A stretch of DNA of 64,000 nucleotides from a phage: the sequence record PZ445551.1, one strand, 5' to 3'. Numbering within the stretch: position 1 is the first letter of the stretch; every line of letters begins with the position of its first letter. The position numbers and the translations under genes were made by a program. Shown here one piece after another: positions 10,034 through 62,619 of this stretch. The notes under the pieces are model-generated. The model was given only the letters and a program-made list of their open reading frames with translations, was not told the DNA's origin and did not search any database.

Positions 10034-10402
10034 ATGCAAGAAAATAATAAAGTGTGTAACATGAAAAGCAGCCCCTATTTGCTACAATTTTATGAGTGGT
10101 GGTTAGAACAAGAAGATACAAACTTTAGCAAAAAGCATTATGGTCTTTGCACGTGTCTTGTAGACTTCTTATACAATATTGCTTGGATAAAAGATGTTGA
10201 GAATGTAGCAAACCTCCAGTCCTCTGTACGAGAGGAAATGAAGGAACAGTTTAAGAAAGCAGGTTTGAACCATTTACACCCATTTAATACAGATTTCTCA
10301 CATTACTTTACGGAAACAGAGTTAGGCATTGCACACCTTAACAAAGAACGTGTACAATGGGTGATTGATCGTATTCGTGATATGGAGGAATATAATGGTT
10401 AA
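10034..10402 (+). CDS. paralog family member 3
   Basis: track ORF; LLQFYEWW, GLCTCL, QFKKAGL, HPFN, VQWVIDRI. Confidence 0.55.
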   Translation: MQENNKVCNMKSSPYLLQFYEWWLEQEDTNFSKKHYGLCTCLVDFLYNIAWIKDVENVANLQSSVREEMKEQFKKAGLNHLHPFNTDFSHYFTETELGIAHLNKERVQWVIDRIRDMEEYNG

Positions 10403-34788: not shown

Positions 34789-35778
34789 TTAAACTTTATT
34801 TTCCCACCACTCTTTGTTATCTACATACCAATCAATGGTTGAATAAAGTTTTTCTTCAAATGTGCCTTTAGCTTTCCACCCTAATTCCTTTTCAATCTTA
34901 TAAGGATTCACTTCATATCTTAGATCATGCCCAGGCCTATCTGTAACCATCTCAATGAGGCTACAAGCATCTGTTTCAGATGGATATACCGCATCCATAT
35001 AATCACAAATCATATAGATTACATCAATATTAGTTCTAGGGTTTCTGCTCCCAATATTATATGTTTCTCCAGATTTGCCTTTAGTTACTACTAGGTGTAA
35101 TGCTTCTGCGTGATCGTCAACGTATAGCCAGTCTCTTACTTGAAGACCATTACCATAAACAGGGATTGGTTTATTCATTAAGATATTTGTTATCGTCTTA
35201 GGTATTAGTTTTTCTGGATGATGATATGCTCCAAAATTATTTGAACAATTTGTTATAACTGTCGGAATACCATAAGTACGATGCCACGCTCTTACCAAAT
35301 GATCGCTTGCAGCTTTAGATGCAGCATATGGACTACTTGGTTTATAAGGATTCTGTTCTGTAAACGGATAATCCCCTTCTTCCAGATCACCATACACTTC
35401 ATCTGTTGAAATATGATGGAACATTTTAAGATTTGATTTATCTCCCATTAAACGAACAGCTTCTAGAAGATTAAATGTCCCAACAATATTTGAATTTATA
35501 AAAACACTCGGTGATGCTATTGAATTATCTACGTGACTCTCTGCTGCAAGATGCATTATATAATCTGGATTAACATCTGCCACAATCTTAGCAGTTAACT
35601 GCGCATTTGTCAAGTCAACACGACAAAACTTTACATTAGGTGTTTCTGATAAATTCCTAGGGTCTGAAGCGTAACCCCATTTATCTATAACGTAAATATC
35701 ATTCTTAGTATTTTTAGCTAGGAAACGAACTACCGCACTTCCAATAAAGCCTAAACCACCTGTTACTAAGTATTTCAT
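34789..35778 (-). CDS. rmlB: dTDP-glucose 4,6-dehydratase
   Basis: TGGLGFIGS Rossmann motif, SDR YxxxK region. Confidence 0.85.
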
Positions 35779-35972
35779 TTAGTCTCCTTCCAATTATTCC
35801 CTTCAGTAAAAATAATACCTTCATAAAACAACCATCTGGAACCTTTTTCAACAGGAACAGGAAGCTCTTCTTCAGTAAAGTTATAAACCTCTCTAGCATC
35901 TTCTAAAAGTGATGCAAATGTTTTTGGACTTACTGTTACGCGAGGAGCATTGATCAGTTGATCTAGCATCAT
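35775..35972 (-). CDS. hypothetical protein (65 aa)
   Basis: track ORF 35775..36065 trimmed to MMLDQ after strong RBS aaggagg. Confidence 0.45.
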   Translation of the reverse strand: MMLDQLINAPRVTVSPKTFASLLEDAREVYNFTEEELPVPVEKGSRWLFYEGIIFTEGNNWKETK

Positions 35973-35985
35973 TCTACTATCCTCC

Positions 35986-36312
35986 TTACCAAACGTGTTG
36001 AGAAATAATAGTTTCCGTTTCAATGTTATATTTTTCAAGAAGTTGTGCATAGGCTTCTTTTGCATTTTTATTTAGTTGCTCAAGATCTACAGCTACACTT
36101 CCTTCGCCACCTTCTAAATAAATGCCATATATGCAATAAGATTCATCAGCATCATAGAAAGGAGAGATACGACTTAAATCAAGACCTTCTTGTAAGAACC
36201 AGTTAAAGTCTCCATCAAATTCTTCTTCAATTCTAGGATCTTCTCCTACAGCTTCTTCCCATTTATTAAAAGGTGCGCCCTGTAACATACGCCATTCAAT
36301 ATTAGTCCCCAT
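35986..36312 (-). CDS. hypothetical acidic protein (108 aa)
   Basis: track ORF. Confidence 0.5.
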   Translation of the reverse strand: MGTNIEWRMLQGAPFNKWEEAVGEDPRIEEEFDGDFNWFLQEGLDLSRISPFYDADESYCIYGIYLEGGEGSVAVDLEQLNKNAKEAYAQLLEKYNIETETIISQHVW

Positions 36313-36442
36313 TATCTTCCTCTTCTTCTTCAGTATGAACGAAACCTAAACCGTTACAATTCCAACAAGGAATAAATTGTTCCATACTAACAATAAAATT
36401 CCCAGTACCACCGCAGATAGGACAAATACTTACATCATCCAT
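36302..36442 (-). CDS. small zinc-ribbon protein (46 aa), not in track
   Basis: ATG 36442 after RBS gaggag; CPICGG ... CWNCNG. Confidence 0.35.
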   Translation of the reverse strand: MDDVSICPICGGTGNFIVSMEQFIPCWNCNGLGFVHTEEEEEDNGD

Positions 36443-36444
36443 TA

Positions 36445-36651
36445 TTAAAGCTCCTCAATCTTTTCTAACATCTGTTTTAACTCATTCTCTGTTAACAGAA
36501 TTTCTGTGATACCATCATAAGTTTCTACCATCAGAGTAAAACATTTCTCTCCATCTGAACACACAAAAGCACCACCTTCATCTTCTGTTAAGTCAGAATT
36601 AATATCTACATCAACAAAATCAATCATCTTTTTCTCCTTTGATAATTTCAA
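36445..36651 (-). CDS. hypothetical acidic protein (68 aa)
   Basis: track ORF; start uncertain. Confidence 0.4.
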   Translation of the reverse strand: MKLSKEKKMIDFVDVDINSDLTEDEGGAFVCSDGEKCFTLMVETYDGITEILLTENELKQMLEKIEEL

Positions 36652-36838
36652 ACTTGGCTACACCATTAACTATAATGTGACCGCAAGACATAACTCCTAG
36701 CCAATGATCACCATTCTTTTTTAAACGTTTACCGTAAACATCACAGAAACCATTCTGTAATTCGGAAGCCTCATAAGAGGCTCCCTTTTCGAAAACGTCT
36801 TTGAAGTCAGAAATTAATCCAACACAAAGTAGTTTCAT
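36620..36838 (-). CDS. hypothetical protein (72 aa)
   Basis: track ORF. Confidence 0.45.
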   Translation of the reverse strand: MKLLCVGLISDFKDVFEKGASYEASELQNGFCDVYGKRLKKNGDHWLGVMSCGHIIVNGVAKFEIIKGEKDD

Positions 36839-37923
36839 TAAAAGTCTAACTCCTCGTCATCACTTACATCTTTATTTGCTGAATTCAGTTTGTAAGCTGT
36901 AATTTGGATCTCCTGTGCTGCTGCTTGAATTTGATCTGGATTTAACCAAACATCCATCCAAGGCAGTGGACTTTTCTTCGGTGCACGGAATTTGTGTTTC
37001 ATTTTCAGTCTGCGATAGATAGGCGCAGCATTGAAGTAAACCCAAAGTTTGAACAACTCTGCGTTACCACCAACGATAATCCTTCCTTCACTAAACAGAT
37101 AGTCACACCAATCTTCCTCTTGTCCAACTACCGTGTCAAGAATTTCTGTCAGAACGTCGATATTATCTTCGTATACTTTTCTCCAGACAGGATCTTTCAG
37201 CAGTGCATCAATAATAGCATAATCCATTTTAACGTGCAATAGTTCATCCAACATAATTTTTTGAATGAGTTTAGCTGCACCTACAAACAGTTGCTGCTCT
37301 GCTAAGGCAAATGTTGCAGCAAAAGATGATATGAATTGAATGCCTTCCAGACCGATAAGTGCAATCATTCCTTTCAGAATCAGTAGACGAAGGTTATCAT
37401 CCTTCTCAATCAGACCTAGAGCATATTTATGCCCTGCCTCTGCCAGATCACTCATTATCTCTTCAACTATACCCATCCTCTGGAAGATTCTTTCGTTCTC
37501 CATAATCTGATCGATAACTTCATTTGGATTAGGGATACACTGACGAATAATTTCAGAATATGTCAAAGCGTGTAAAACTTCCATTTCTGATTGCTTCATC
37601 ATCATTGCACATGCTTCGTTGTTGCTTAAAAATGGTGCAAACAAAGTGATGATTGATTTAGCAAGTGAATCATTTTCCCACTGGAAAGATAGGTTTTTGA
37701 TCATAACATCATAGTTGCTTTTAGAACAAGCTACGAAATCTTTTCGTGTCTGATCTAAGTTTACTTCGTTTTCATCCCAGTCTTGCTGTTTTTGTAGTTT
37801 GTACAGACGATGCATTTCTGGGTATGTTACATTAATAGAATCAAAAATACCTAACTGTTCTCCCAAAAACACAGGGTAGAAACCTTCTTTGTAAGTGTCG
37901 TTGTATAAGTTAATTGCTGCCAT
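36838..37923 (-). CDS. nrdB: ribonucleotide reductase class Ia beta subunit
   Basis: ferritin-like di-iron protein of the right size (361 aa), adjacent to nrdA. Confidence 0.85.
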   Translation of the reverse strand: MAAINLYNDTYKEGFYPVFLGEQLGIFDSINVTYPEMHRLYKLQKQQDWDENEVNLDQTRKDFVACSKSNYDVMIKNLSFQWENDSLAKSIITLFAPFLSNNEACAMMMKQSEMEVLHALTYSEIIRQCIPNPNEVIDQIMENERIFQRMGIVEEIMSDLAEAGHKYALGLIEKDDNLRLLILKGMIALIGLEGIQFISSFAATFALAEQQLFVGAAKLIQKIMLDELLHVKMDYAIIDALLKDPVWRKVYEDNIDVLTEILDTVVGQEEDWCDYLFSEGRIIVGGNAELFKLWVYFNAAPIYRRLKMKHKFRAPKKSPLPWMDVWLNPDQIQAAAQEIQITAYKLNSANKDVSDDEELDF

Positions 37924-37945
37924 TTAAAAATTCTCCTCAATAAAA

Positions 37946-37965
37946 AGGGGCCGAAACCCCTTGAT
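37946..37965 (-). terminator. rho-independent terminator
   Basis: GGGG-tttcgg-CCCC then TTTTT on minus strand. Confidence 0.5.
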
Positions 37966-37967
37966 GT

Positions 37968-38624
37968 TTAGCCTTGGAACACTGTTTTTGTTTCTGCCAA
38001 GTGATAGTATAAATCTGCCTTGTTTATAAGAGTGTTGTATACCTCTTGACAAAAATGTTCTTCCTCTTTGTAACGATTCGCTGTTTCCCTGATCGACTTG
38101 GCTTTATCTTTTAACCAAGCGAAGTGTGCCTCTTCCTCTGTAGCGAAATAGCCTAAATGCTTGCTTTTGCTTCCAGAAGTTTTGGCATAAATCTTGCCAT
38201 CTTTCCTAATATGCGCTCCGAGTAAGTATTTCCTTTTATGTCTCTTGGCATAACTTAAAAGTGTATTGATATAGGGAGGAACAAACCTACAATATTCAGG
38301 ACAATAGACAGTATTTCCCTCAAGAACAAGATCTTTGTCTAAAACAAAACCTTCGACATTGTGTTCTTGATACCAATTATCAAAATTTGAAAAAGTAAAC
38401 CAAGCATCACAGACGGTAACATCTTTATACCCTGGTCTAATATCTTCCATCTTATATGCACGATGAAACATGCCTTTCCAAGCTGCATAGGAAGGGTCTA
38501 TGAATGTGTTAACCCTTTTCCCGTTGACAACGCCACCTTCCCACAATCTACGTTCAACATCCACAATCAAGGGGATTTCTCCCCTCTCTGTGAGAACAGT
38601 AACTTTACGTTTACCCTTCTTCAC
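37968..38624 (-). CDS. putative homing endonuclease with AP2-like DNA-binding domain
   Basis: HLGYFATEEEAHFAW AP2-like motif; free-standing between nrdA and nrdB. Confidence 0.55.
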   Translation of the reverse strand: MKKGKRKVTVLTERGEIPLIVDVERRLWEGGVVNGKRVNTFIDPSYAAWKGMFHRAYKMEDIRPGYKDVTVCDAWFTFSNFDNWYQEHNVEGFVLDKDLVLEGNTVYCPEYCRFVPPYINTLLSYAKRHKRKYLLGAHIRKDGKIYAKTSGSKSKHLGYFATEEEAHFAWLKDKAKSIRETANRYKEEEHFCQEVYNTLINKADLYYHLAETKTVFQG

Positions 38625-38632
38625 CTGTCCTC

Positions 38633-40897
38633 CTACATTTTACAGGCGCTACACCCCTCGTCTTCAGAATCTTCTTGAGCGAGTGAGGATGCCGATTTTG
38701 TTCTGCTATTTAGATAGTACAAAGATTTACCACCAAGTTTTGCAAACTGAAGAATATATTGCATTTCTGATTTAATGGATAAACGACCACCTTCCATCTT
38801 AGAGTAGTCAATCCACTTATCACATGATGCACCTTGATCTAAGAATTTAGTCAACAGGCCATATGCTTCAGCCATATCTTTATCTGGCGTATCCCAAGCC
38901 GATTGGTAAATATCTTTTAGTTTATCGTAATCTGGCACAATAAACAGAACATTACCTTTTTGGCTTTGTTTATAAACTATAGTATCACGTACAGGATACA
39001 CAGAGTTAGTCGTATTACTTACAAGACTACTGGACTCATTTGGAGCAATAGCTGCTAATACGCTATTTCGGATACCACCTTGTGCAATGATATCTTGTCG
39101 TAAACCTTCCCAATCCATTTTAAGTTTAAAATTGCCAATATCGTCTACAGCTTTAGCGTAGGTGTCAATAGGCAACCATCCTTCAGGCCATTTGGTTTTA
39201 TGCATCCATTCTGCATTACCTTTCTCTTTTGCCAAACGAAGAGAAGCTCTTGCTAACCAATAATAATGTCTTTCTGCTAATTCGTGAATTAGTTTTTTGC
39301 CGTAAGGATCTGAATAAGTAACAAAATTACTTGCCAGATAATGTGCAAGGTTTGTAATACCTACACCGATAGACCTACGTGCTTTAGCAGTGATTTCGTT
39401 ATGTTTAAACGGATACTGCATTGTTTCAATAACATTATCAATAGTCAGAACGGTATAATATGCAACATCTTCATATTCTTCTGGTGTAACACGACCAGCT
39501 ACAATAGAAGACAGGAAGCATAATGCCAATTCTTGATCTTCTGTATTCTCACCTGTGAAAAGATCAGTCATATTGTGAAATGCTTTCGTAGGTAAGAAAA
39601 TTTCTTGGCACAAGTTTGACTGGTAAATAACATCCTTAAACGGAGTATGTTTATTAGCATTATCCGCAAAGAACATATAAATACGTCCTGTCTCTGCTCT
39701 TTGTGTAATAATTTCTGCCAGAAGATCTCGTGCTTTTACAAACTTCTTCTTAATTCGTTTGCGACTAACTTTTTCATATACTTCTTCAAACTCTTCCTCG
39801 CTTTTATAAAGCGCCTCATAGAGTTCTGGTGCTTCGTCATAACTGACTAGCATCCAATCTTTACCTTTTGCTGCACGGCGCAGGAAAGCATTGTTTACTA
39901 CAATAGAGTAATCAAGTTTATCTACTCGTTTTTCACTAACAGTAGTTGGGTTTTTCAAACGTACCAGATCTTCAAAATCAGGTTCTAGTATTGTAAACGT
40001 TACTGTTGCACTTCCACCACGGCTTGCTTGTTTTGATGCTCCAACACTTGTTTCCATCCATTTCAGATATGGTAAAAGACCACCGTGAACGATACGGTTG
40101 TTCTTAACACCTTGTCCTGTAGCACGGGTTTGGAGGTTAACACCAATACCTGCATTATTCAATGTATATTCATGAGCAAGATAGTTAGCAATTGCTAAAG
40201 ATTCTGCTGTATCATCTGCTCTAAACAGGCAACAAGAAGCACTACCTTTAATCTTAGTACGCAAAGTTGTTAAATAAGGTGATGGTAAGTTAATCTTAAG
40301 ATCACTTACGTAGGTATATAGACGTTTAATGTCTTCTACTCTGCGATCTTTTGGTTGAATTTCCATTACCTTCATTGCTACACCAATGAATAAAAACTGT
40401 GGTGATTCAAAAACAACATCATTGATCGCATCTTTCACAAGATACTTATCAACCATCTGGCGCAGTACGGAATAACCATAAGTTAGGTTTTTATCGTGAT
40501 TGACAATTTTACCAATCTCAATAATTTCTTCTTCTGTATAATCCATTTTTCCCCAATAGCCTTTACTTACAGCCATATTGTAGAAATCCAGGAGGGAGGG
40601 GATATTATGATATCCCCCATGAGCCTGTTTATAAATCATACCAAGAAGTAACCGACCTGCCATATCACTATATGCCTGATCTTTCTTATCAATACATGCT
40701 GCTATCATAGCTTTATGTAAATCACGAGTAGGCACACCGTCGTAACAACGTTTAACAGCTTCAAGTTCAATTTCAGACCAATTTAATTTACCAGCAGCAA
40801 ACTCTGACCATTTACGAAGTTTTTCTGGATTAAATTCTTCTTTCTTGCCGTTTGTTTTTGTTACATAACGGATAGATTTGCTTAGATACTGAGTCAC
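38633..40897 (-). CDS. nrdA: ribonucleotide reductase class Ia alpha subunit
   Basis: 754 aa; conserved RNR large-subunit core with catalytic Cys and C-terminal CSAC. Confidence 0.9.
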   Translation of the reverse strand: MTQYLSKSIRYVTKTNGKKEEFNPEKLRKWSEFAAGKLNWSEIELEAVKRCYDGVPTRDLHKAMIAACIDKKDQAYSDMAGRLLLGMIYKQAHGGYHNIPSLLDFYNMAVSKGYWGKMDYTEEEIIEIGKIVNHDKNLTYGYSVLRQMVDKYLVKDAINDVVFESPQFLFIGVAMKVMEIQPKDRRVEDIKRLYTYVSDLKINLPSPYLTTLRTKIKGSASCCLFRADDTAESLAIANYLAHEYTLNNAGIGVNLQTRATGQGVKNNRIVHGGLLPYLKWMETSVGASKQASRGGSATVTFTILEPDFEDLVRLKNPTTVSEKRVDKLDYSIVVNNAFLRRAAKGKDWMLVSYDEAPELYEALYKSEEEFEEVYEKVSRKRIKKKFVKARDLLAEIITQRAETGRIYMFFADNANKHTPFKDVIYQSNLCQEIFLPTKAFHNMTDLFTGENTEDQELALCFLSSIVAGRVTPEEYEDVAYYTVLTIDNVIETMQYPFKHNEITAKARRSIGVGITNLAHYLASNFVTYSDPYGKKLIHELAERHYYWLARASLRLAKEKGNAEWMHKTKWPEGWLPIDTYAKAVDDIGNFKLKMDWEGLRQDIIAQGGIRNSVLAAIAPNESSSLVSNTTNSVYPVRDTIVYKQSQKGNVLFIVPDYDKLKDIYQSAWDTPDKDMAEAYGLLTKFLDQGASCDKWIDYSKMEGGRLSIKSEMQYILQFAKLGGKSLYYLNSRTKSASSLAQEDSEDEGCSACKM

Positions 40898-40908
40898 TTC
40901 CTCTCCTA

Positions 40909-41169
40909 TTAATTATGCATATTTAGAACATCTACATCATAACCGCCACGCATCTCGTTATATAAGCCATTTGCGTATAGAAAACCTTCAAAATGATCTA
41001 TACCTTCAAAACCTTTTGCCTTTGCTTTGCGGTCTGCTTCTTGTCTTTTTGGAGATAATCTTTTAGATGTATCAAGGATAACTGTTACATTGCAACCTAA
41101 TGTTTCATCAAAATAGACTTCAATTTCACAGCCTTCATATTTATTACTTTCTGTCATTTGGCCTCTCAA
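40909..41169 (-). CDS. hypothetical protein (86 aa)
   Basis: track ORF. Confidence 0.5.
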   Translation of the reverse strand: MRGQMTESNKYEGCEIEVYFDETLGCNVTVILDTSKRLSPKRQEADRKAKAKGFEGIDHFEGFLYANGLYNEMRGGYDVDVLNMHN

Positions 41170-41580
41170 TTAGAATTCAGAATCATCATCTCGTGATGGA
41201 TCATGTTCATTTCCGAAGTCTTCCATTTTGATATGAGAGCTACCCCAACCTGTAAAATCTTCTTCTCCAAAGTGCAAAATATCCACACCTTGATAGATTC
41301 GTTTATATTTATAGTCTTGACGAACTGGGAAAGTATACAATGTAGTATTTGCAAACACCACACGTCGATTGTTGTTACTACGAATATTAACACCACGTTC
41401 TACTGTATAATGTCCATCGGTAGACATACCAAGCATTACTAATGCTGCTCGCAATGTAGTGTTATGATACTCGTGAGGAATTTTTCCTCCGTGCTTTTTA
41501 GCCATTTCTTTCCAGATCGGTGTAGCCTTAATGGTAGACATACTTACGGTCGCCCAAATGGTTGTATTAATTAGTGACAT
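41170..41580 (-). CDS. hypothetical protein (136 aa)
   Basis: track ORF. Confidence 0.5.
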   Translation of the reverse strand: MSLINTTIWATVSMSTIKATPIWKEMAKKHGGKIPHEYHNTTLRAALVMLGMSTDGHYTVERGVNIRSNNNRRVVFANTTLYTFPVRQDYKYKRIYQGVDILHFGEEDFTGWGSSHIKMEDFGNEHDPSRDDDSEF

Positions 41581-41677
41581 AAATTCTCCTTCTCTCTTTT
41601 AAGGAGAGCATAGCTCTCCTAACGTTAGCCTATACTACACGAATCTCAATTAAAAGTCAACTATAATTTTAAGTTGA

Positions 41678-42649
41678 TCACCATTTTGTATGGTTAGTCA
41701 AAAGTTGACGATGTTGAATCCAACCACAGAAGTTTCCACTCCACAAACGATGTTTACGATCCATATGTGTAATACCTTCTTCCCAAGAGGAAGGGAACGG
41801 AGGAATATTAATACCACCTTTCTGTTGTTTTAATCCTGACAAATCCATTTCTTTCATTGGCGTTGCCTGGTGTTCAAACGGAGATGCATGTACCTTTTGT
41901 CCAGACAGCAAACGAGAATAGATATCCAATGCTTTATCTTTAGTATCATTCAACTTACGATAACTTACCTGAGCGCAACAAGAAGCTGAAATAGCTTTTG
42001 CTTCATCTTCTGTCAACATTTTCTCGTTGGAGAAGGTTTCACCCAAGAAATAACGGATCATACCAGTTTCTGGATCTCGATCACGATTAACGTAAGGTGT
42101 ATGCCACTCCCCTGGGAAAAGAAGATATGGTTCAGAAGATTCATACAGTTTTTTAATTTCTTTAGCAAGAGCCTCAATAGTAGGATCTGCATCAGCATCT
42201 ACGCGCAACCACAAGAAGTTTTCTAATTCTGTAGTGGTTACTACAGTCTTCATACGCTGGAATGGTTCTAGTAGTCGGTTTGCAACCTGTTTATGATAAC
42301 CAGCAAGGGCAAACTCTTCTGCAAAACGTGCAGCACTTAGTGCAGCCAAGTCCCACCATTCTTTTGCAGTGTAACCTGCATCAATCAGGGCATCGTGATC
42401 TGTGCCTTTATCTTGCATACCTGGTTGGTTAGCACCAAAACGATAAGGACGTGCTGGAGATTGCCGTACCATTTCAATCAGGGTTTTAACAGGGATAGCT
42501 CGACTTGATGCGGCATTACGAGAAAACAAACGATGCGTCATCAACTCAGAGTGAATGATTCGAGGATATTCAAGTTCAAAGGTAACAATATCCTTACCTT
42601 CAGATGTTTGAGAGTGTGCAATAATTTTTGCTGAAATAGAATCTGTCAT
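41678..42649 (-). CDS. thyX: flavin-dependent thymidylate synthase
   Basis: ThyX signature HRLFSRNAASSRAIP (RHR...S motif). Confidence 0.85.
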   Translation of the reverse strand: MTDSISAKIIAHSQTSEGKDIVTFELEYPRIIHSELMTHRLFSRNAASSRAIPVKTLIEMVRQSPARPYRFGANQPGMQDKGTDHDALIDAGYTAKEWWDLAALSAARFAEEFALAGYHKQVANRLLEPFQRMKTVVTTTELENFLWLRVDADADPTIEALAKEIKKLYESSEPYLLFPGEWHTPYVNRDRDPETGMIRYFLGETFSNEKMLTEDEAKAISASCCAQVSYRKLNDTKDKALDIYSRLLSGQKVHASPFEHQATPMKEMDLSGLKQQKGGINIPPFPSSWEEGITHMDRKHRLWSGNFCGWIQHRQLLTNHTKW

Positions 42650-51789: not shown

Positions 51790-52722
51790 TTAGCCTCCAA
51801 AGAAGTTTTCTATTTCTTTACGTCTCTCTTGTGGATCGAGAGCAGCCCATTGAGCCTTCGTAAATTTATTTCGAAGCCATTCTAGCAAAGTATAATATTC
51901 TTCGTCAACAATTTGTTTAGCATTGTTTGGGTTGTCCCAAATCATATCCCACTTCTTATTGCCACCACGCATAAGGAATTTCTTAGCAAGATAGTATGGT
52001 GACTTAATCTTTAACAGTAAGTTAAACGGGTAGTTTGTTTCACGAACAACAAACCCTTCGTGTTTACAATGTTTAGACATTTCAACAACATCTGAAAATT
52101 TAATCATCGGATAAACTTCAGGACGTTTAAACTTTGTAATAGATGCAATCCCATCAAGAACACCTTCAGGTAACATGAAACTTGTCCCATCAAGATTTTG
52201 AATTCTTGCTCCAATTAAGTATGCGCCTGGTTCTTCTTCGACAATATGTGGATCAGAAGGATCACAGATTTCAAAAAGAAAAGTTGCTTTTGCACTTTCT
52301 GTCCACTTAATGAAATACTCTATGTCGTCACACTCGGAAACAATACGGTTCTTTGCCATAATTGCAAAATCTGATTCTAGACTCCCTGTTGTTGATACAA
52401 CAAGTTTCCCTTTGTACACACCTACAGATGCCATAAAACCGTTTACTTTACGGACAGCATCTACAATTTCGTCTGCTGGAAGATCTGTACCATTTTCAAA
52501 ACGATTAAAGATTTTAGTAAAAGGCCAAATAACAACATTGTCTTCTGAGTCAACAACCAACCCACGACAATCTAAAAGTCGTTTGTCAACGTTCCACAAG
52601 TTATCCCAGAATACATTGTTTTTGTATTTAAGTACAGCAAGACCAGCATACTCTCCAGATTTAACTTCTTTTTTATGCACTAAACCTTTTGCAATCAGGT
52701 CATCACAATTGAACTTAGCCAC
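51790..52722 (-). CDS. RNA ligase-like nucleotidyltransferase (Rnl2-type candidate)
   Basis: motif I KVNGFM, EGFVVRE, KIKSPYY. Confidence 0.55.
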   Translation of the reverse strand: MAKFNCDDLIAKGLVHKKEVKSGEYAGLAVLKYKNNVFWDNLWNVDKRLLDCRGLVVDSEDNVVIWPFTKIFNRFENGTDLPADEIVDAVRKVNGFMASVGVYKGKLVVSTTGSLESDFAIMAKNRIVSECDDIEYFIKWTESAKATFLFEICDPSDPHIVEEEPGAYLIGARIQNLDGTSFMLPEGVLDGIASITKFKRPEVYPMIKFSDVVEMSKHCKHEGFVVRETNYPFNLLLKIKSPYYLAKKFLMRGGNKKWDMIWDNPNNAKQIVDEEYYTLLEWLRNKFTKAQWAALDPQERRKEIENFFGG

Positions 52723-52723
52723 C

Positions 52724-53275
52724 TTAATCTCCTTTGATTATCTTATGATGATCTACAACAATAATATCACGCTTATCCATAATAGAAATGATTTCGTCAA
52801 AATGCAAGATTTTCCCGTGTGCATCCCAACCAACATCCAACATTTTCCCATACAAATGATCAGGGAATGATCCGTGAGAGTGTCCGTGTAGCATGATTGA
52901 TCCATGCCCTTGTTTATTCCAGGCAGCCATAGGGTAATGACTTAAGACGAAGAACAGCTTCTGATATTTCACTTCGTCATAATACACAACTTCTCCATAC
53001 TCTGCAAGCACTTTTCTGTGTTTACTATAATCATGGTTCCCAACACAGTAAGTAATATCCCCTTGGAGACGGGAAGCAATCTTACGGGTATCTTCTTCAG
53101 TCCCGAAACAGAAGTCCCCAAGATGGTACATCTTTACTCCTGGTGTTGTGGCACATTTATTCCATGCTTCGATCAGTGCTTCTGTCATATGCTCCATATC
53201 TTCCCACGGACGATATTCAGGAGCAAACTCTCGGATACGTTTGTGCATAAAATGCAAATCACTTGTAATAAACAT
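52724..53275 (-). CDS. calcineurin-like metallophosphoesterase (candidate 2',3'-phosphatase)
   Basis: SDLHF, HLGDFCFG, VGNHDY motifs. Confidence 0.65.
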   Translation of the reverse strand: MFITSDLHFMHKRIREFAPEYRPWEDMEHMTEALIEAWNKCATTPGVKMYHLGDFCFGTEEDTRKIASRLQGDITYCVGNHDYSKHRKVLAEYGEVVYYDEVKYQKLFFVLSHYPMAAWNKQGHGSIMLHGHSHGSFPDHLYGKMLDVGWDAHGKILHFDEIISIMDKRDIIVVDHHKIIKGD

Positions 53276-53634
53276 TAGTATAATCCCTCGCTGAATAGTT
53301 CACTGTTGTGACCATTTCTTTCGTAGTTAATTTGTTTGGCGTTATCTGCAATGATATAAGCATCTTTGCGACTCCACCAGTTATAATACTGATCAATAAA
53401 CCCTTGATTATCAGGTAAGCAAAACAGTTTATCAATCAATCCTGCATCTTTTAAAACATTAAGTTGTGCAGATAGTACAGGATTTGCATGCCTAACACAA
53501 GGAATAATTAACTCTTCGCCATTATTGAGAATATACTTATTCGCAGCGCAGACTATAACACGTTGAGCATAGTGATCCTCACCAAGCCAAGTAAGAGGTT
53601 GGTAACAAATATCATGTTGATTAGTAGCGCACAT
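53275..53634 (-). CDS. hypothetical protein (119 aa)
   Basis: track ORF (TTG 53637) trimmed to ATG 53634. Confidence 0.5.
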   Translation of the reverse strand: MCATNQHDICYQPLTWLGEDHYAQRVIVCAANKYILNNGEELIIPCVRHANPVLSAQLNVLKDAGLIDKLFCLPDNQGFIDQYYNWWSRKDAYIIADNAKQINYERNGHNSELFSEGLY

Positions 53635-53792
53635 CAATTTTCCCCATACTCTTTTAATCTATCAGCGAAAAAACTGTAATCAGGAAGTAAAAGATCATTA
53701 CTCGTATCGCTACAGTTTTCTTCCTCTTTATAGATAAAATGCCCTTCATCCTCTTCTTGCTCTGACCAAACTGAGTAATGCATAATACCTAC

Positions 53793-54134
53793 TTAATAGT
53801 TAACACGTTTAATTTCAACACCATAGGATGAAATAAAATTTTCCTTAGCTAACATATATTTACCAGCAGCAGAAGGATTTGATGTATGAACATAGATAGT
53901 TTTAAGAGCATCCCATTCACCCGCGTACAACATACATTCTACGTCTAAGAACGCATGATATCCTTCTTGATCTTCTCCAAGATCATTATCGAAGTGTATC
54001 TCTGAGATATTATTGAAATTATCTTCATCTGAAACAAAAGATAACCAATCCTCAAAAGATTTTAACCAAATGGCATCCTCATAACCATAATCTTTAGGAT
54101 CTCTTAAATCGTCTAACCAAAGAATTTTAGCCAC
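53793..54134 (-). CDS. hypothetical acidic protein (113 aa)
   Basis: track ORF. Confidence 0.5.
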   Translation of the reverse strand: MAKILWLDDLRDPKDYGYEDAIWLKSFEDWLSFVSDEDNFNNISEIHFDNDLGEDQEGYHAFLDVECMLYAGEWDALKTIYVHTSNPSAAGKYMLAKENFISSYGVEIKRVNY

Positions 54135-54137
54135 TAT

Positions 54138-54329
54138 CTACCCCCCTTCCTGTTTCTCTTCTTTCCAAGTTTTACCATTATCTACCAACTTCTTAGAAAC
54201 AGCAAATCTTTCTCCATTGATATAAAACAAATAAAGAATAAAGGATTTTCCTATAGTTACAGTATCTGCTACTTCTACACGCTTTACACCTTGCATGTAT
54301 TTGGCTTTACCTGAATAAATAAGAAACAT
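54138..54329 (-). CDS. hypothetical protein (63 aa)
   Basis: track ORF. Confidence 0.45.
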   Translation of the reverse strand: MFLIYSGKAKYMQGVKRVEVADTVTIGKSFILYLFYINGERFAVSKKLVDNGKTWKEEKQEGG

Positions 54330-54607
54330 TACTTATTCCTTTTGTTGTTGATCACATCTAAAGCTGTGTAAGGTTTGTTTGTACCGCTGTATTCAAGAAT
54401 AATTGGTACATATTCATAGACCAACTCAAAAGTGCCATACACAGAATCTGCAACTGAAATAAGCATTTCAGTGCCTTCGTCGTTCTTAATTAATGAAAAT
54501 CTTGCCCCTGGTTTATTGAGCACTTCATATTTCTTACCTGCTGTCAGCAAACCTGAATACCATTCATTTTGCACAACAGACAAACACTTCAGATAAGTTT
54601 TTCTCAT
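54329..54607 (-). CDS. hypothetical protein (92 aa)
   Basis: track ORF. Confidence 0.5.
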   Translation of the reverse strand: MRKTYLKCLSVVQNEWYSGLLTAGKKYEVLNKPGARFSLIKNDEGTEMLISVADSVYGTFELVYEYVPIILEYSGTNKPYTALDVINNKRNK

Positions 54608-54945
54608 TTCTTTTTGCTCCTTCTTTTAGGCTTCTCGTATAAACCTAACACAGCCGATTCTTTTGCACAAATAGGAACTGACTTCATTCCTCGTTTTTTA
54701 GCTTCTGGTAGATTCAAAACCCACCAGCCAAACCAGTACAATTCATCTTCTGTGAAAGGATCTGCCATAGGATCTGCATCACGTGCTTCAAATTTAGCAA
54801 GAGCTTCTTCTATCTTTTCTATTGGAGTATCAAAGACAAAAGCCTCTGTGTCAAATTTTTGTTTCTTAGGAGCGGCTTTTGCCGCCCCATCTTTAGATGC
54901 GCGCTTTGTTACGGATCGCTTCTTCGGTGTTTTCGCCATCAACAA
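54604..54945 (-). CDS. hypothetical protein with Lys-rich N-terminus (113 aa)
   Basis: track ORF; KKRSVTKRASKDGAAKAAPKKQK tail. Confidence 0.5.
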   Translation of the reverse strand: MLMAKTPKKRSVTKRASKDGAAKAAPKKQKFDTEAFVFDTPIEKIEEALAKFEARDADPMADPFTEDELYWFGWWVLNLPEAKKRGMKSVPICAKESAVLGLYEKPKRRSKKK

Positions 54946-55132
54946 CCTCCATGCGGTGTAAGAAATCTTGCTGGAATCGCCAATACTGTTGACCAGTCCT
55001 TACATCTTCGTAGATCACAACAGGATCAAATACTTTAGATACACCCGCTGGTTTAGGAAAGCCAACTACACGATATAAACCGCCTTTGCTAATACAAGAA
55101 TATGTTACATCAGTTAAAATTTCTTTTTTCAT
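54893..55132 (-). CDS. hypothetical protein (79 aa)
   Basis: track ORF; overlaps downstream gene by about 50 nt. Confidence 0.4.
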   Translation of the reverse strand: MKKEILTDVTYSCISKGGLYRVVGFPKPAGVSKVFDPVVIYEDVRTGQQYWRFQQDFLHRMEVVDGENTEEAIRNKARI

Positions 55133-55326
55133 TTCTTAATAAACTCCAATACAGGTACGTGATCAGCAGTTAAAGTTACACAATTGTAACTCACCTTTTC
55201 AACTTCAGAGAATGCTTCAACCCAAAGCAAGAAATTCTCTTTAGCTTCTTCATAATTCAATGTTGACTTAACAACATGGAACTCACCAAGGATGACTCTA
55301 TAGATTGTTTGCATAGTTTGATTCAT
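55129..55326 (-). CDS. hypothetical protein (65 aa)
   Basis: track ORF. Confidence 0.45.
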   Translation of the reverse strand: MNQTMQTIYRVILGEFHVVKSTLNYEEAKENFLLWVEAFSEVEKVSYNCVTLTADHVPVLEFIKK

Positions 55327-55392
55327 TTATTTTTCCTTTGTTTAAAATGTGTTAAACAATCGCAAATGCTTGTGACGCACTTTGTGATCCCA

Positions 55393-55761
55393 CTAATTAA
55401 TGTCAGCACTATGATTGTTGAGAGTATAGGATACTCCATCGCCCAAGTCAACATGAATCTCAACTCCTAACTGTCTTTCTAATGGTAAACGTTTTGAGAA
55501 TTGATAATTACAAAGTTTACAGTCTAAGTCAAGCAATTCATGTTTGCTTAAACCTAGGATGATAACTTTGCTTCCCACTGTCCACTCAATACCTTCAAAG
55601 TTATCTCTTCTTTTCAAAATGTCAAGTAAGAAGATGATTTGTTGCCATTCCGTAGACAAGTCTTCTTCATAGAACGCAGAACAAAAAGTTTTATCATCGT
55701 AGAAAGCATACATTATGCCTCCATCTATTGTTTCACTTCTAACGTAACGTGTGACCCTCAT
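55393..55761 (-). CDS. hypothetical protein (122 aa), first gene of the minus-strand module
   Basis: track ORF; RBS aggagg upstream. Confidence 0.5.
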   Translation of the reverse strand: MRVTRYVRSETIDGGIMYAFYDDKTFCSAFYEEDLSTEWQQIIFLLDILKRRDNFEGIEWTVGSKVIILGLSKHELLDLDCKLCNYQFSKRLPLERQLGVEIHVDLGDGVSYTLNNHSADIN

Positions 55762-56102
55762 TATTTCCTCCTGTACGGCTCTGTAACGAGCTAATAGCCT
55801 CTAAGATATGCAATCACCTTACCTCACAGTAAAACTCGTTACAATCGTTTTTAGGAGGTTTAGGTTGTACTTAAAAATAATCTAAAAAGGTGTTGACAAA
55901 CGCAAAAAAGTATGCTACCCTAACCCCCGAAAAACGCCGAGCGCAGCGAGGGGGTGTTATCTAATCTTGTGATACATGATCTAACAGACAACTGAGTAGT
56001 CTACATATAGCACTATGTTATGTCTATAATACTAACATACATACTCTATACTAACAATAGATTCTTTATTAATTTTATTATTAATTAAATAATAAATATC
56101 TA

Positions 56103-56131
56103 TTGACTTTAGATCTATCTGTATGTAGAGT
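56103..56131 (+). promoter_or_regulatory. sigma70-like promoter TTGACT-17-TAGAGT
   Basis: read directly upstream of the Prs-like gene. Confidence 0.5.
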
Positions 56132-56170
56132 AGAGAACATAAAGTCCTAACTCAACTAAGGAGATAAACA

Positions 56171-57064
56171 ATGAAAGTTAGTATTCTACATGGTGTTGAC
56201 TGTTATGTTACTGATGTAGACGTTAAAGTCTTTACATTCTCTGGTGGAGAACAACATGTTCAACTAGATACGAATCTATCAGGTTTCAATCATGCTACAG
56301 ACAGAATCTTACTCTCTTTAGAAGTAAGATCTGCTAAAGACTTGATGACTTTGGTTATGACTAAGAATGCATTGGACAATATGCTATATCATAAACCATA
56401 TTGTGTTGATTTACTCATGCTGTATGTGCCATATGCACGACAAGACAGAGTGTGTGAACCTGGGGAAGCATTCGGAGTTAAAGCATTTGCTTCTATAATT
56501 AATTCATTAAATTTCTCACGTGTTATCGTTGCTGATCCACATAGTGATGTTACTCCAGCAGTGTTTGACAGACTCTGTGTAATACCTCAAGAAGAGATTG
56601 CTTACGAAACTTTAAAATGGAAGTTACGTATGGAGAATTTTGCTCTTGTTAGCCCTGATGGTGGTGCTCTTAAGAAAATATTTAAATTATCTAAGAAAAT
56701 GTCTTTAGATGTGTTCTGTGCAGAGAAGGTTAGAGATACCGCAACAGGTGCTATTGTTCGTACAGACATTTCTGTACAGGATTTCAATAAGCGTAACCTG
56801 ATGATCGTAGATGATATCTGTGATGGTGGTAGAACTTTTATCGAATTGGCTAAAGTGCTACGTGCTCGTAACGCAGGTAAGATTGAGTTATATGTTACAC
56901 ACGGTATCTTTTCTAAAGGTCTTAAAGAGTTAAGTGAGCACTTTGACTGCATTCATTCTCTTAATGTGTGGGAAGATAACATCCAAGAAGATTCCGGTGT
57001 TCTTGTTAAGAATCAGTCAGATTTGCAACAACAAATTGTATCTCCATACGTGTGGAATTTTTAA
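56171..57064 (+). CDS. ribose-phosphate pyrophosphokinase (Prs) family protein; candidate ADP-ribose pyrophosphate synthetase (Adps-like)
   Basis: VPYARQDR, VSPDGGA, MIVDDICDGGRT, VTHGIFS motifs of the PRPP synthetase fold. Confidence 0.75.
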   Translation: MKVSILHGVDCYVTDVDVKVFTFSGGEQHVQLDTNLSGFNHATDRILLSLEVRSAKDLMTLVMTKNALDNMLYHKPYCVDLLMLYVPYARQDRVCEPGEAFGVKAFASIINSLNFSRVIVADPHSDVTPAVFDRLCVIPQEEIAYETLKWKLRMENFALVSPDGGALKKIFKLSKKMSLDVFCAEKVRDTATGAIVRTDISVQDFNKRNLMIVDDICDGGRTFIELAKVLRARNAGKIELYVTHGIFSKGLKELSEHFDCIHSLNVWEDNIQEDSGVLVKNQSDLQQQIVSPYVWNF

Positions 57065-57074
57065 ATAATAAGTG

Positions 57075-57103
57075 TTGACAACAGGGAGTATGCTTAGTAA
57101 GAT
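57075..57103 (+). promoter_or_regulatory. sigma70-like promoter TTGACA-17-TAAGAT overlapped by 7-bp inverted repeat GGGAGTA/TACTCCC
   Basis: read directly upstream of the NAMPT-like gene. Confidence 0.5.
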
Positions 57104-57135
57104 ACTCCCACACTAACAAACAAGGAGACATAACT

Positions 57136-58884
57136 ATGAATATTTTTGCACCTTTTGCTACTGATTGGTATAAACCTGGTCACAAGCAGATGTACAACCA
57201 AAATACAAAACTCATTTTCTCTAATTTAACTCCTCGTAATGATAAAAACTTTGCACACTATGCAGATCGTGAAGCACGTGGTGTGATTGTTTTAGGTATT
57301 CGTCGAGCAGTCACCGATGCCCTTGTAACTATGTGGGACAGCTTCTTTAAAATGTCTCGTAGTGCAGCAGTAAATAAATTTTATCGTATGTCTAAAAATG
57401 CATTAGGTGCTTCTGCTCCTTCTGCTGAATGTTGGGGAGAATTGCACGATTTAGGTTATCTTCCGCTAGAAGTTCGATCTCTGCCAGAAGGTGTTTTGTG
57501 TCCTATTGGTGTTCCTGTGTTTACTGTGCATAACACTTTAGAAAAATTCTTTTGGTTAACTAACTATGTGGAAACACTATTGTCAGATGAAACTTGGAAG
57601 ACAATGACTAACGCCACAGCAGCTTTTCAGTATAAGCGTATCGCTATGGCGTATGCGATGGCAACGTGTGATAACATTGATCACGTTAATTTCCAGTGTC
57701 ATGACTTTAGTCTACGTGGCTTAAGCAATATCGAAGATGGTTATAAGAGTGGTATCGCTCATTTGGCATCTTTCACAGGAACAGATAATATTCTGGCTAT
57801 TGAAACTGTGCATGATTACTATGGTATTGATTATGATCAATTTGTTGCAGGTTCTATTCCGGCAACAGAACATTCAGTAGCAACGACTAACATTGGAGCT
57901 ATTGTTGAAGATCTGAAGAAACATTTCCCACATCTTAAAGATGATGTTGATGGGCTTCGTTATGTAGCAGAGAAAGAGTTTCTTCGCCGCTATATTGAAG
58001 AAATTGTCCCAGAAGGTTTTTGTTCATATGTAGCAGATTCTTATGATTACTGGGCTGTCTTGACTCGCATTCTGGTAGAATTGAAAGAGTCCATTATGTC
58101 ACGAAATGGTCGTCTTGTTATTCGTCCAGATTCAGGAGATCCGGTTAAAGTTGTTGCAGGATACAATGTTGAATCTTTTGATAACTATGAAGACCTTTTA
58201 AATAATGGTATTGCTACAGCCACTGAAGTAGTACATTTGGCTGATGTTAATAAGTATTACAATGTTCTTCAGGATTGCAGTGTTGCTGATTGTATCGATG
58301 AAACTTATGAGATTCCTTATTGTGAAGCAGTAGGTTCTATTCAAATCCTTTGGGAAGTGTTTGGCGGTACTATCAACCGAAAAGGCTACAAGGTTCTTGA
58401 TCAGCACATCGGTATGATTTATGGTGATTCTATTACTGTTGAACGAGAACACGAAATCTTACGCCGACTGAAGAAGAAAGGCTTTGCTGCTTCCAATATT
58501 GTATTTGGTGTTGGTAGTTATACTTATCAGTTCAATACACGAGATACTTTTGGTTTTGCTGTTAAAGCAACAGGTAGTATCATCGGTGAACACGAAATTT
58601 TGGTAAGTAAGGAGCCTAAAACTGATCCTGGTAAACGCTCTGCAAAAGGTTTTATTAAGGTTGTTAAGGATACAAATGGTAAACTTTCTCTTGTGGATAA
58701 TCTTTCTTTTAAAGATATCCAAGATGAAGACAATGAGTTAAAAGTTATCTTCAGGGATGGTACGGTTATTACACCACAAGTAGAAGGACGTGATGAAACA
58801 TTTACTGATATCCGTAACCGTGTTGATGTAGAGGTTCTTCGTACTATGGGAACCATCCAGGTTGACTACATAAAAACTTCGTGA
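57136..58884 (+). CDS. nicotinamide phosphoribosyltransferase (NAMPT/NadV) family protein; candidate nicotinamide ADPR transferase (Namat-like)
   Basis: N-terminal TDWYKPGHKQMY matches the NAMPT TDSYK.TH motif; 582 aa. Confidence 0.75.
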   Translation: MNIFAPFATDWYKPGHKQMYNQNTKLIFSNLTPRNDKNFAHYADREARGVIVLGIRRAVTDALVTMWDSFFKMSRSAAVNKFYRMSKNALGASAPSAECWGELHDLGYLPLEVRSLPEGVLCPIGVPVFTVHNTLEKFFWLTNYVETLLSDETWKTMTNATAAFQYKRIAMAYAMATCDNIDHVNFQCHDFSLRGLSNIEDGYKSGIAHLASFTGTDNILAIETVHDYYGIDYDQFVAGSIPATEHSVATTNIGAIVEDLKKHFPHLKDDVDGLRYVAEKEFLRRYIEEIVPEGFCSYVADSYDYWAVLTRILVELKESIMSRNGRLVIRPDSGDPVKVVAGYNVESFDNYEDLLNNGIATATEVVHLADVNKYYNVLQDCSVADCIDETYEIPYCEAVGSIQILWEVFGGTINRKGYKVLDQHIGMIYGDSITVEREHEILRRLKKKGFAASNIVFGVGSYTYQFNTRDTFGFAVKATGSIIGEHEILVSKEPKTDPGKRSAKGFIKVVKDTNGKLSLVDNLSFKDIQDEDNELKVIFRDGTVITPQVEGRDETFTDIRNRVDVEVLRTMGTIQVDYIKTS

Positions 58885-58940
58885 TAAGATTAAGGTAAGG
58901 AGAGCCTGCAACTGCCCTGGATGGGCTTCACGAAGGATTT

Positions 58941-59864: not shown

Positions 59865-59946
59865 CGGGGTGTATCTCACCTGACTTCTAATCAGGCGTTA
59901 ACCGAGTAATTGGAGTATGCAGGTTCGAATCCTGTCACCCCGGCCA
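59865..59946 (+). tRNA. atypical tRNA-Arg(TCT)-like element lacking a D-arm
   Basis: perfect acceptor CGGGGTG/CACCCCG, T-arm GCAGG-TTCGAAT-CCTGT, anticodon hairpin CCTGA-CTTCTAA-TCAGG, but only 7 nt between acceptor and anticodon stem and a 23-nt insert before the T-arm. Confidence 0.4.
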
Positions 59947-61273: not shown

Positions 61274-61303
61274 TTGACAAAGGGGCTAATAATATGTTAG
61301 AGT
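61274..61303 (+). promoter_or_regulatory. sigma70-like promoter TTGACA-18-TAGAGT
   Basis: read directly; about 12 nt upstream of tRNA-Gly. Confidence 0.5.
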
Positions 61304-61888: not shown

Positions 61889-61903
61889 AATTATTACAGA
61901 TTG

Positions 61904-61982
61904 TGCGGGATAGAGGAGTCTGGTCGTCCTCGCCAGTTTCATATGCTGGAGATCATCGGTTCGAATCCGATTCCCGCCTCCA
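61904..61982 (+). tRNA. tRNA-Met(CAT) (second CAT tRNA; elongator Met, initiator or Ile2)
   Basis: anticodon arm CCAGT-TTCATAT-GCTGG, T-arm ATCGG-TTCGAAT-CCGAT, acceptor with mismatched 1-72 pair. Confidence 0.7.
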
Positions 61983-62040
61983 ATAAATACCTCCCTTCTG
62001 GTGTAATGATTAAGTTACATTGACACTTCAAGGAACTCAT

Positions 62041-62123
62041 AGCCGGGTAGATTTAAAAGAGTATGGTACTCAATATGGCTCCAAACCATAGATCAAGGGG
62101 TTCGATTCCTCACCTTGCTGCCA
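62041..62123 (+). tRNA. atypical tRNA-Trp(CCA)-like element (possible pseudo-tRNA)
   Basis: anticodon arm TATGG-CTCCAAA-CCATA and T-loop TTCGATT present, but 11-nt insert between acceptor 5' strand and D-arm and imperfect acceptor/T stems. Confidence 0.3.
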
Positions 62124-62128
62124 ATTAT

Positions 62129-62204
62129 TGTGGTATCGTACAGATGGTTAGTACACTCGACCGATAATCGAGAAACAACGGTTCGACTCCGTTTACCACG
62201 ACCA
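62129..62204 (+). tRNA. tRNA-Ile(GAT)
   Basis: acceptor TGTGGTA/TACCACG, D-arm GTAC-AGATGGTTA-GTAC, anticodon arm CTCGA-CCGATAA-TCGAG, T-arm AACGG-TTCGACT-CCGTT. Confidence 0.8.
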
Positions 62205-62312
62205 AACTCCGTGCCAGCGGTGTCTTCGAAGAACAAGCCTAGTTCCTTCTGAGATGGAGGGGTGCGACTCCTTAACGCACATACTACTACTAAATACTTA
62301 TCAGGAGATATT

Positions 62313-62582: not shown

Positions 62583-62595
62583 AGAATTTTATAAA

Positions 62596-62619
62596 AGCCT
62601 CCTTTTTGGAGGTTTTTTA
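62596..62619 (+). terminator. rho-independent terminator
   Basis: agcctcc-ttttt-ggaggtt followed by TTTTTT. Confidence 0.65.

Follow-up and report, generated by a model that had tools for sequence, protein, structure and literature searches.

A transfer RNA (tRNA)-like element lies at positions 62041-62123, on the + strand, of a 64,000-nucleotide (nt) stretch of phage DNA (record PZ445551.1; the whole stretch is referred to below as the window). This element is, with good confidence, a real gene for tRNA-Trp(CCA) that is maintained by selection and belongs to a distinct structural class. As judged from conserved pairing, it is an (8/4) tRNA-Trp, with eight base pairs (bp) in the acceptor stem and four in the T stem, to which an additional inter-strand helix (helix X) has been added and in which a long variable arm is absent; the 8/4 arrangement itself is already known. 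The original prediction described a tRNA-Trp-like element with a disrupted acceptor and D region, which would be either a decaying pseudo-tRNA or a non-canonical tRNA. All the features that it listed are present (the acceptor strands, a D-like stem GAGT/ACTC at 62059-62062/62068-62071, the anticodon arm and the T loop at 62101-62107), and so are the 11-nt insert TAGATTTAAAA at 62048-62058 and two mismatches, C4·U69 in the acceptor stem and A49·A65 in the apparent T stem. The features thus stand but the disruption does not, each apparent defect being a conserved element of design. In 36 homologues, compensatory changes preserve the pairing, in agreement with the non-canonical alternative, while conservation and covariation over at least four phage lineages refute decay.

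Architecture and covariation of the Trp element

Pairing was assessed in an alignment (A4) of 36 distinct sequences, which were segmented by fixed rules with the register held by N padding; plain MAFFT alignments (A2 and A3) misplaced the anticodon loop and the 5' ends, and A4 was used instead. Over the whole structure, 92.2% of cells are in standard pairs, as compared with 43.5-48.9% when the partners are slid, and changes on both sides are found in 25 of the 26 pairs. None of 500 shuffles matched the observed number of paired cells, of pairs or cells with two-sided changes, or the covariation score, and 3 of 500 matched the number of further pair types. A four-way alignment of the window with Klebsiella phage KP13-26, Citrobacter phage Tr1 and Hafnia phage Zyzzx contains double changes in the acceptor stem, in the anticodon stem and in the D-like hairpin, where for example GAGTA/TACTC is replaced by GTCAC/GTGAA. 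In a single sequence, the minimum free energy (MFE) structure from RNAfold gives the 8/4 arrangement, the hairpin, the anticodon arm and a 4-bp T stem. RNAalifold recovers a 6-bp hairpin, the anticodon stem and the 4-bp T stem, together with seven positions of the acceptor stem, without the pair 8:65.

The acceptor 5' strand AGCCGGGT (62041-62048) is 8 nt long and comprises positions 1-7 (AGCCGGG, 62041-62047) and position 8. It pairs with the 8-nt 3' strand ACCTTGCT (62112-62119), of which CCTTGCT (62113-62119) faces positions 1-7, and all eight pairs covary among the homologues. The additional pair 8:65 (T62048:A62112) is standard in all 36 sequences (UA in 18, GC in 10, UG in 5, AU in 2 and CG in 1), whereas slid controls reach 25-39%. 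A49 (62096) is unpaired, and a standard pair 49:65 is absent from 34 of the 36 class members while it is formed in 141 of 151 canonical-length phage tRNA-Trp genes. Since 8:65 is paired throughout and 49:65 is nearly always missing, the acceptor/T branch is, on this comparative evidence, 8/4 rather than 7/5, and its total is still 12 bp. Accordingly, the A·A opposition that had been taken for a T-stem defect is better described as a change of partner, position 65 being engaged with position 8. The T arm (62097-62111) consists of a 4-bp stem, GGGG/CCTC, in which every cell is paired, and the loop TTCGATT. The other supposed defect, C62044·T62116 at 4:69, is no accident of this copy either, because a pyrimidine-pyrimidine mismatch recurs at this pair in 15 of 36 class members as against 1 of 151 canonical-length genes. 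In members whose region from position 8 to position 26 is at least 27 nt long, one base is bulged ahead of the 8:65 pair.

The insert does not interrupt the structure but would form part of it. After A9 (62049), a one-nt connector that is A in 36/36, positions 10-12 (GAT, 62050-62052) are complementary to ATC (62092-62094) within the variable region G-ATC-A (62091-62095), so that the insert and the variable loop form a covarying 3-bp helix. The corresponding triplets are complementary in all four sequences of the four-way alignment (GAT/ATC, GCT/AGC, AGT/ACT and GGT/ACC). In the 36 homologues, 86.1% of the helix X cells are paired, as opposed to 12-48% with slid partners, and 51 cells have changed on both sides, compared with 17 ± 5 in shuffles (0/500 reaching the observed value). 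There are 23 distinct triplet combinations, 13 of them fully Watson-Crick. Three members found after the model had been fixed (L307, L314 and L315) have three Watson-Crick pairs out of three in helix X; 8:65 is standard in two of them and is G·A in L307. Splicing of the insert was also considered and rejected, because a bacterial tRNA intron of 9 nt is not possible and because covariation links the insert to the variable loop.

Helix X is followed by a single-stranded U/A-rich linker, TTAAA (62053-62057), of which the first base is T in 36/36 and the rest is mostly T or A and then A; its length ranges from 3 to 6 nt among the members. A compact D-like hairpin then occupies 62058-62072, with the stem GAGTA/TACTC (62059-62063/62067-62071), the triloop TGG (62064-62066) and a flanking A62058·A62072, and all six aligned pairs covary. 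This hairpin has 5-6 bp and a 3-nt NGG triloop in 27 of the 36 sequences; in the Bacillus-phage subgroup, a 3-bp stem closes a 9-nt loop. The GG of the triloop is invariant except in Salmonella phage SSBI34 (TGT), which is also the sole member with the T loop TTAGA. This would correspond to a double change from G19-C56 to U19-A56, and it supports docking of the two loops on each other. The equivalent of position 26 (A62073) is a purine in 36/36; a pair 26:44 is possible in just 23/36, and position 26 could instead pair in 36/36 with the invariant T that follows helix X, although this combination does not vary and is hence uninformative. The anticodon arm (62074-62090), TATGG-CTCCAAA-CCATA with the anticodon CCA at 62081-62083, has five of five pairs covarying and 95% of cells paired. 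The element ends with the discriminator G73 and a genome-encoded CCA (62120-62123), G73 being common to all members listed, whether or not they encode the CCA. The variable region of class members is 5-7 nt. Collectively, the pairing indicates that the usual four-way junction is replaced by two three-way junctions, one formed by the acceptor stem, helix X and the T arm, and the other by helix X, the hairpin and the anticodon stem.

Distribution among phages and annotation

By the match of window positions 61890-62310, the source is a phi92-like phage of the genus Justusliebigvirus; this segment matches Escherichia phage VivaForever at 100% identity and about 50 further records at 95-99%. In a BLAST search with 61985-62128, conservation outside the genus is limited to 62039-62124, that is, to the boundaries of the tRNA. 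The identity is about 81% to KP13-26 and Tr1, other members of the Stephanstirmvirinae, and 74% to Zyzzx of the Ounavirinae. The comparison with related phages that had been proposed along with the original prediction therefore finds the same element, with the same boundaries, in other subfamilies. Homologues were gathered by BLAST with divergent members and by pattern scans of IMG/VR. A first pattern was overly specific and gave 4 loci, and a class-specific pattern gave 58. The sequences come from the Stephanstirmvirinae, the Vequintavirinae (PVP-SE1, BIS47, UPEC06, SSBI34, Av-05 and DU_PP_I), the Ounavirinae (including LPML1, which is recorded as a Listeria phage), Bacillus Tsarbombavirus-type phages (BCP8-2, BCP78 and TsarBomba-type contigs) and uncultured viral contigs, and their mean column identity is about 70%. 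In Escherichia phage 18-1-2 (L010, Avunavirus; ~1488-1566), the T loop reads TTCTATT and the end is GCAA rather than GCCA, which could reflect decay in this lineage or a sequencing error.

These genes form a discrete class, because there is a gap in the length of the stretch from the acceptor strand to the anticodon stem (the 8-26 region). Among the matches listed, this stretch is 14-20 nt in 130 phage tRNA-Trp(CCA) genes and 24-27 nt in 15, and none of these matches has a length of 21-23 nt; the genes for this comparison were picked without reference to the D region. When 185,579 bacterial and archaeal species, each represented by one genome, were scanned with the class pattern, only three true members were found. 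Two of them (L307 and L314) sit within phage-like tRNA arrays binned into metagenome-assembled genomes (MAGs), and the third (L315) is from Paenibacillus. With so few members outside phages, and two of the three in phage-like arrays, the class is essentially confined to phages, which infect both Gram-negative and Gram-positive hosts. The arrays of L307 (an Erysipelotrichaceae MAG) and L314 (an Anaeroplasmatales MAG) are dense, with 14-18 tRNA genes, and a tRNA with the CUA anticodon (amber suppressor) stands beside the class member in each; both contigs probably stem from TAG-recoded phages and were wrongly binned with bacterial DNA.

At the Trp locus, nothing is annotated in most GenBank records of phages that are phi92-like, rV5-like (Vequintavirinae) or Tsarbomba-like, and only a few, such as PVP-SE1 and TsarBomba, label their own copy as tRNA-Trp. 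The loci in KP13-26, Tr1 and Zyzzx are unannotated, and the Zyzzx record skips a locus-tag number for the slot. ARAGORN found none of the 36 class members. Because of these mostly blank records and the failure of ARAGORN, tRNA repertoires and codon-supply analyses of such phages omit Trp.

Decoding role, rival explanations and the rewired core

The Trp element is most likely a functional Trp tRNA that is charged by the host tryptophanyl-tRNA synthetase (TrpRS), because all features for charging and decoding are conserved. The identity set of bacterial TrpRS consists of the anticodon C34-C35-A36 and G73, with A1-U72 as a minor element. All of them are present (CCA at 62081-62083, G62120 and A62041-T62119), and A1-U72 is found in most members. 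The anticodon loop is CTCCAAA in 35/36, and G18-G19 and the T loop TTCGA vary little or not at all. The 12-bp acceptor/T branch is the length measured by EF-Tu, RNase P and the CCA-adding enzyme. Host tRNA-Trp is encoded by a single copy in 5426/5426 complete E. coli genomes. In the proposed course of events, the Trp element would be transcribed together with the neighbouring tRNAs, excised by RNase P and 3' processing enzymes, charged by host TrpRS via the CCA anticodon, G73 and A1-U72, and delivered by EF-Tu to decode UGG, topping up the single-copy host tRNA-Trp during infection. In the putative three-dimensional arrangement, helix X probably stacks on the anticodon stem in place of the D stem, and the GG of the hairpin probably docks on the T loop to make the elbow.

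Several observations weigh against this interpretation. ARAGORN called 15 tRNAs in the window, the Trp element not among them, and it likewise missed the rest of the class (0/36). The score with the Rfam tRNA model (RF00005) is 22.9 bits, under the gathering score of 29, and the MFE of the Trp element is no better than that of shuffled sequences (z = 0.35). Helix X is absent from the RNAalifold prediction, so that it is drawn from covariation alone, and in the fixed register it has two of three pairs in the PVP-SE1 group, one in Av-05 and none in DU_PP_I. The segmentation of A4 involved one lineage-specific choice (the base bulged where the 8-26 region is at least 27 nt), and the 36 sequences share a phylogeny, with the result that the shuffle statistics overstate independence. 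The element does not form the standard 7/5 cloverleaf, with a D stem 10-13/22-25 two nt after the acceptor, while it does have an acceptor stem that joins the ends, a discriminator with CCA, a 5-bp anticodon stem with a 7-nt loop (U33 and a purine at 37) and a T arm with the TTCGA loop.

The failure with ARAGORN and with the Rfam threshold, as well as the mismatches in the acceptor and apparent T stems, is what would be expected of a former tRNA-Trp that has been disabled by an insertion and stem mismatches and is now drifting, and the phage 18-1-2 copy, with its damaged T loop and without a CCA end, suggests that some lineages may be losing the gene. Such a decaying pseudo-tRNA is nevertheless very improbable for the class, as the same architecture is kept in 36 sequences with only about 70% mean identity and each helix has undergone compensatory changes; even the positions of the insert and of the mismatch take part in the covariation, and the anticodon loop and G73 are invariant. 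Still less credence can be given to a D-armless tRNA at 62060-62120, as which the full tRNA model is aligned by cmscan at 22.9 bits. In that alignment AGTATGG serves as the acceptor 5' strand and pairs with CCTTGCT with one mismatch. It is the nearest approach to a standard cloverleaf at shifted coordinates, a finding that the original prediction would have counted against itself, but its score is below the gathering score and conservation extends as far as 62041. Moreover, the equivalent bases in phage Tr1 (GTCACTG) and in most members are unpairable with the acceptor 3' strand, and the bases equivalent to AGTATGG show covariation, as in a hairpin, with a 3' partner of their own.

It is also conceivable that the element is a tRNA-shaped RNA that does not decode, serving either to draw off a host factor as a decoy or sponge (candidates being TrpRS, a modification enzyme and a tRNA-directed defence nuclease or toxin) or as a regulatory RNA. 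No tRNA known to work on the ribosome has a core of this kind, the class hardly occurs outside phages, and regulatory roles have been raised for some 8/4 and 9/3 tRNAs in an earlier survey (Mukai et al., 2017; PMC5389517). On the other hand, the 7-nt anticodon loop with A36-A37-A38, G73 and the 12-bp branch are strictly conserved, the elbow pair G19-C56 is conserved, including one double change, and there is no second phage-borne tRNA-Trp in the cluster. A non-decoding role is thus considered quite unlikely, and a tRNA that is charged and decodes remains the preferred explanation.

For this decoding tRNA, the core may have been rewired for evasion of nucleases, for Hirsh-like reading of UGA, or as a neutral, frozen accident. 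Our preferred guess is that, owing to its altered core or hinge, the tRNA is attacked poorly by tRNA-targeting nucleases or toxins but can still serve in translation. Genes for an Rnl1-type RNA ligase and a phosphoesterase lie near the cluster on the opposite strand, which is consistent with a conflict over tRNA integrity, and evasion of nucleases by the rewired core is plausible because these genes adjoin. A rather speculative proposal is that the rewired hinge is an adaptation peculiar to tRNA-Trp, conferring immunity to a defence or host-shutoff activity by which canonical tRNA-Trp is destroyed or disabled, or making a Hirsh-type near-cognate UGA reader for read-through or late-gene control. 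If so, TrpRS, EF-Tu, RNase P and the ribosome would tolerate two three-way junctions in place of a four-way junction.

If a functional tRNA-Trp with a changed hinge promoted the reading of UGA as Trp during infection, the element would be the naturally occurring equivalent of the Hirsh (G24A), A9C and 4-bp-anticodon-stem variants. The point mutations G24A and A9C and an unpaired 27:43 enable UGA reading by tRNA-Trp(CCA), and the known variants of this kind all alter the hinge, at residues 9-12, 23-26, 44 and 45 (PMC13092985). These are the residues that are rebuilt in the Trp element. When about 2.7 Mb of tRNA-rich phage DNA was searched with a descriptor, the architecture was restricted to the CCA anticodon plus one tRNA-Gly(UCC) in the contig L294, and a dedicated scan for a UCA-anticodon version gave unrelated tRNAs only. 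In the open reading frames (ORFs) of the window, the median distance to a second in-frame stop is 3 codons after TGA, 7 after TAA and 20 after TAG, the backup stop being nearer after TGA than after the other two (one-sided Mann-Whitney p = 0.03-0.06). This signal is weak, however, and is also expected from ordinary leakiness of UGA. Furthermore, TGA is an ordinary stop that ends 23 of 113 ORFs (20%) with no sign of avoidance, the pair 27:43 is formed in 36/36, A9 is kept, position 24 has no equivalent in a D stem, and no candidate read-through gene was identified in the analysis. UGA reading is considered unlikely. A nearly Trp-specific change in the hinge that is known to govern UGA misreading by tRNA-Trp offers testable ideas about decoding control by phages and evasion of tRNA-targeting immunity.

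Loose descriptors for a long D region mostly matched mis-registered canonical tRNAs, with one real-looking non-Trp case. This is the tRNA-Gly(UCC) at ~10117-10195 (+) of L294, a 235-kb IMG/VR contig, which has a similar plan and is the sole non-Trp example. Its acceptor stem of 7 bp is perfect, G8 is pairable with C65, a 6-bp hairpin carries a TGG triloop, and there is AAC/GTT complementarity with the variable loop.

The tRNA cluster and comparison with known tRNAs

The Trp element belongs to a cluster of 16-17 tRNA genes on the + strand and is oriented in the same direction as its neighbours, tRNA-Met (61904-61982) and tRNA-Ile (62129-62204), the latter beginning 5 nt downstream. In a consensus scan, the nearest upstream sigma-70-like promoter match, TTGACA-18-TAGAGT, was found at 61274-61303 (+) before tRNA-Gly, and a terminator-like site at 62593-62617 (+). 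The former is the probable start of a polycistronic tRNA transcript containing the Trp element. In the neighbouring 79-nt tRNA-Met(CAU) (+), which is annotated as tRNA-fMet in some records, the D arm has a stem of 5 bp and a loop of 9 nt, and U1 is mismatched with C72. The spacer after tRNA-Ile (62205-62295, +) contains a T-arm-like GGGGTGCGACTCC and a palindrome TCTTCGAAGA; it has no Rfam match, and its fold is not better than that of shuffled sequence (z = 0.09). A second non-canonical tRNA of the cluster is located at 59865-59943 (+). It has a 7-bp acceptor stem, just 7 nt in place of the D arm, a UCU (Arg) anticodon arm, an additional variable-region hairpin CCGA-GUAA-UUGG and a normal T arm. 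This tRNA scores 38.6 bits with the Rfam tRNA model, above the threshold, and has an MFE z-score of -2.15; it is not called by ARAGORN and is listed as tRNA-OTHER in the VivaForever annotation. The tRNA cluster is immediately preceded by genes for nicotinamide phosphoribosyltransferase and ribose-phosphate pyrophosphokinase (VivaForever 35221-42315, corresponding to about 51800-58900 of the window).

Other odd phage tRNAs were encountered. One type of tRNA-Trp, seen in Vibrio phage D421 (L252; ~270-345) and Aeromonas phage 4_4572 (L248; 283-353), is 7/5 with one nt after the acceptor stem, and its whole D arm is a 3-4-bp hairpin with a 3-5-nt GG loop. The D421-type tRNA has partial BLAST matches in 291 Vibrio phage records, unannotated among the matches listed, and the Aeromonas copy is annotated as tRNA-Ser. 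In the phage tRNAs of L321, L322, L035 and L155, the D region spans 24-25 nt and follows the form TGGTTAATGYAAATTGGYACAGCT; the variable region is short, A73 is present and the anticodon is UCA or UAG.

Branches of 8/4 and 9/3 and long D stems like those of tRNA-Sec have been described, including allo-tRNAs, phage (8/4) tRNA-Ser, tRNA-His, minor Cys and Sec species and bulged variants (PMC5389517). The (8/4) tRNAs (Mukai et al., 2017) share with the Trp element the 12-bp branch split 8/4, the long D stem with a tiny loop, the occurrence in phage tRNA clusters and, in one subgroup, a single nucleotide bulged out of the branch. They differ in having Ser, His, Cys or Sec identity and mostly a long variable arm, whereas the Trp class has Trp identity (CCA and G73) and a variable region of 5-7 nt. 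Trp is never mentioned in that paper (PMC5389517), and no mention of helix X or the U/A linker was found in the portion of it examined, nor does the corresponding portion of a 2020 review of non-canonical tRNAs (PMC7609411) mention the architecture with helix X and the linker, the word "phage" being absent there; no description of a tRNA-Trp of such architecture was found in open-access papers. The known (8/4) family would therewith gain another amino acid, Trp, together with a new structural solution in which positions 10-12 join the variable loop in a helix and a free-standing hairpin presents G18-G19. The scaffold could also serve in orthogonal tRNA design.

The canonical bacterial tRNA-Trp used for comparison is E. 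coli trpT. The two share the CUCCAAA loop, G73, A1-U72, A9, the TTCGA T loop and the encoded CCA, and in both there are 12 nt from G19 to the anticodon loop. Unlike trpT, the Trp element is 8/4 rather than 7/5, is devoid of a 10-13/22-25 D stem, and possesses helix X and the C·U mismatch at 4:69; the distance from the acceptor strand to the anticodon stem is 26 nt, as compared with 19 nt in trpT. The extended acceptor stem and the 6-bp D stem with a very small loop, which replaces the usual tertiary layers of the D loop, are reminiscent of tRNA-Sec. However, tRNA-Sec is 8/5 or 9/4 and has the UCA anticodon; its variable arm is long, SerRS charges it, and it depends on SelB, unlike the Trp element in each respect. 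The UGA-reading variants of tRNA-Trp(CCA) are the same isoacceptor and are likewise changed at the junction of residues 9-12, 23-26 and 44-45, but they carry point changes in a 7/5 cloverleaf (PMC13092985), whereas in the Trp element the whole D region appears to have been rebuilt with A9 and the pair 27:43 left intact.

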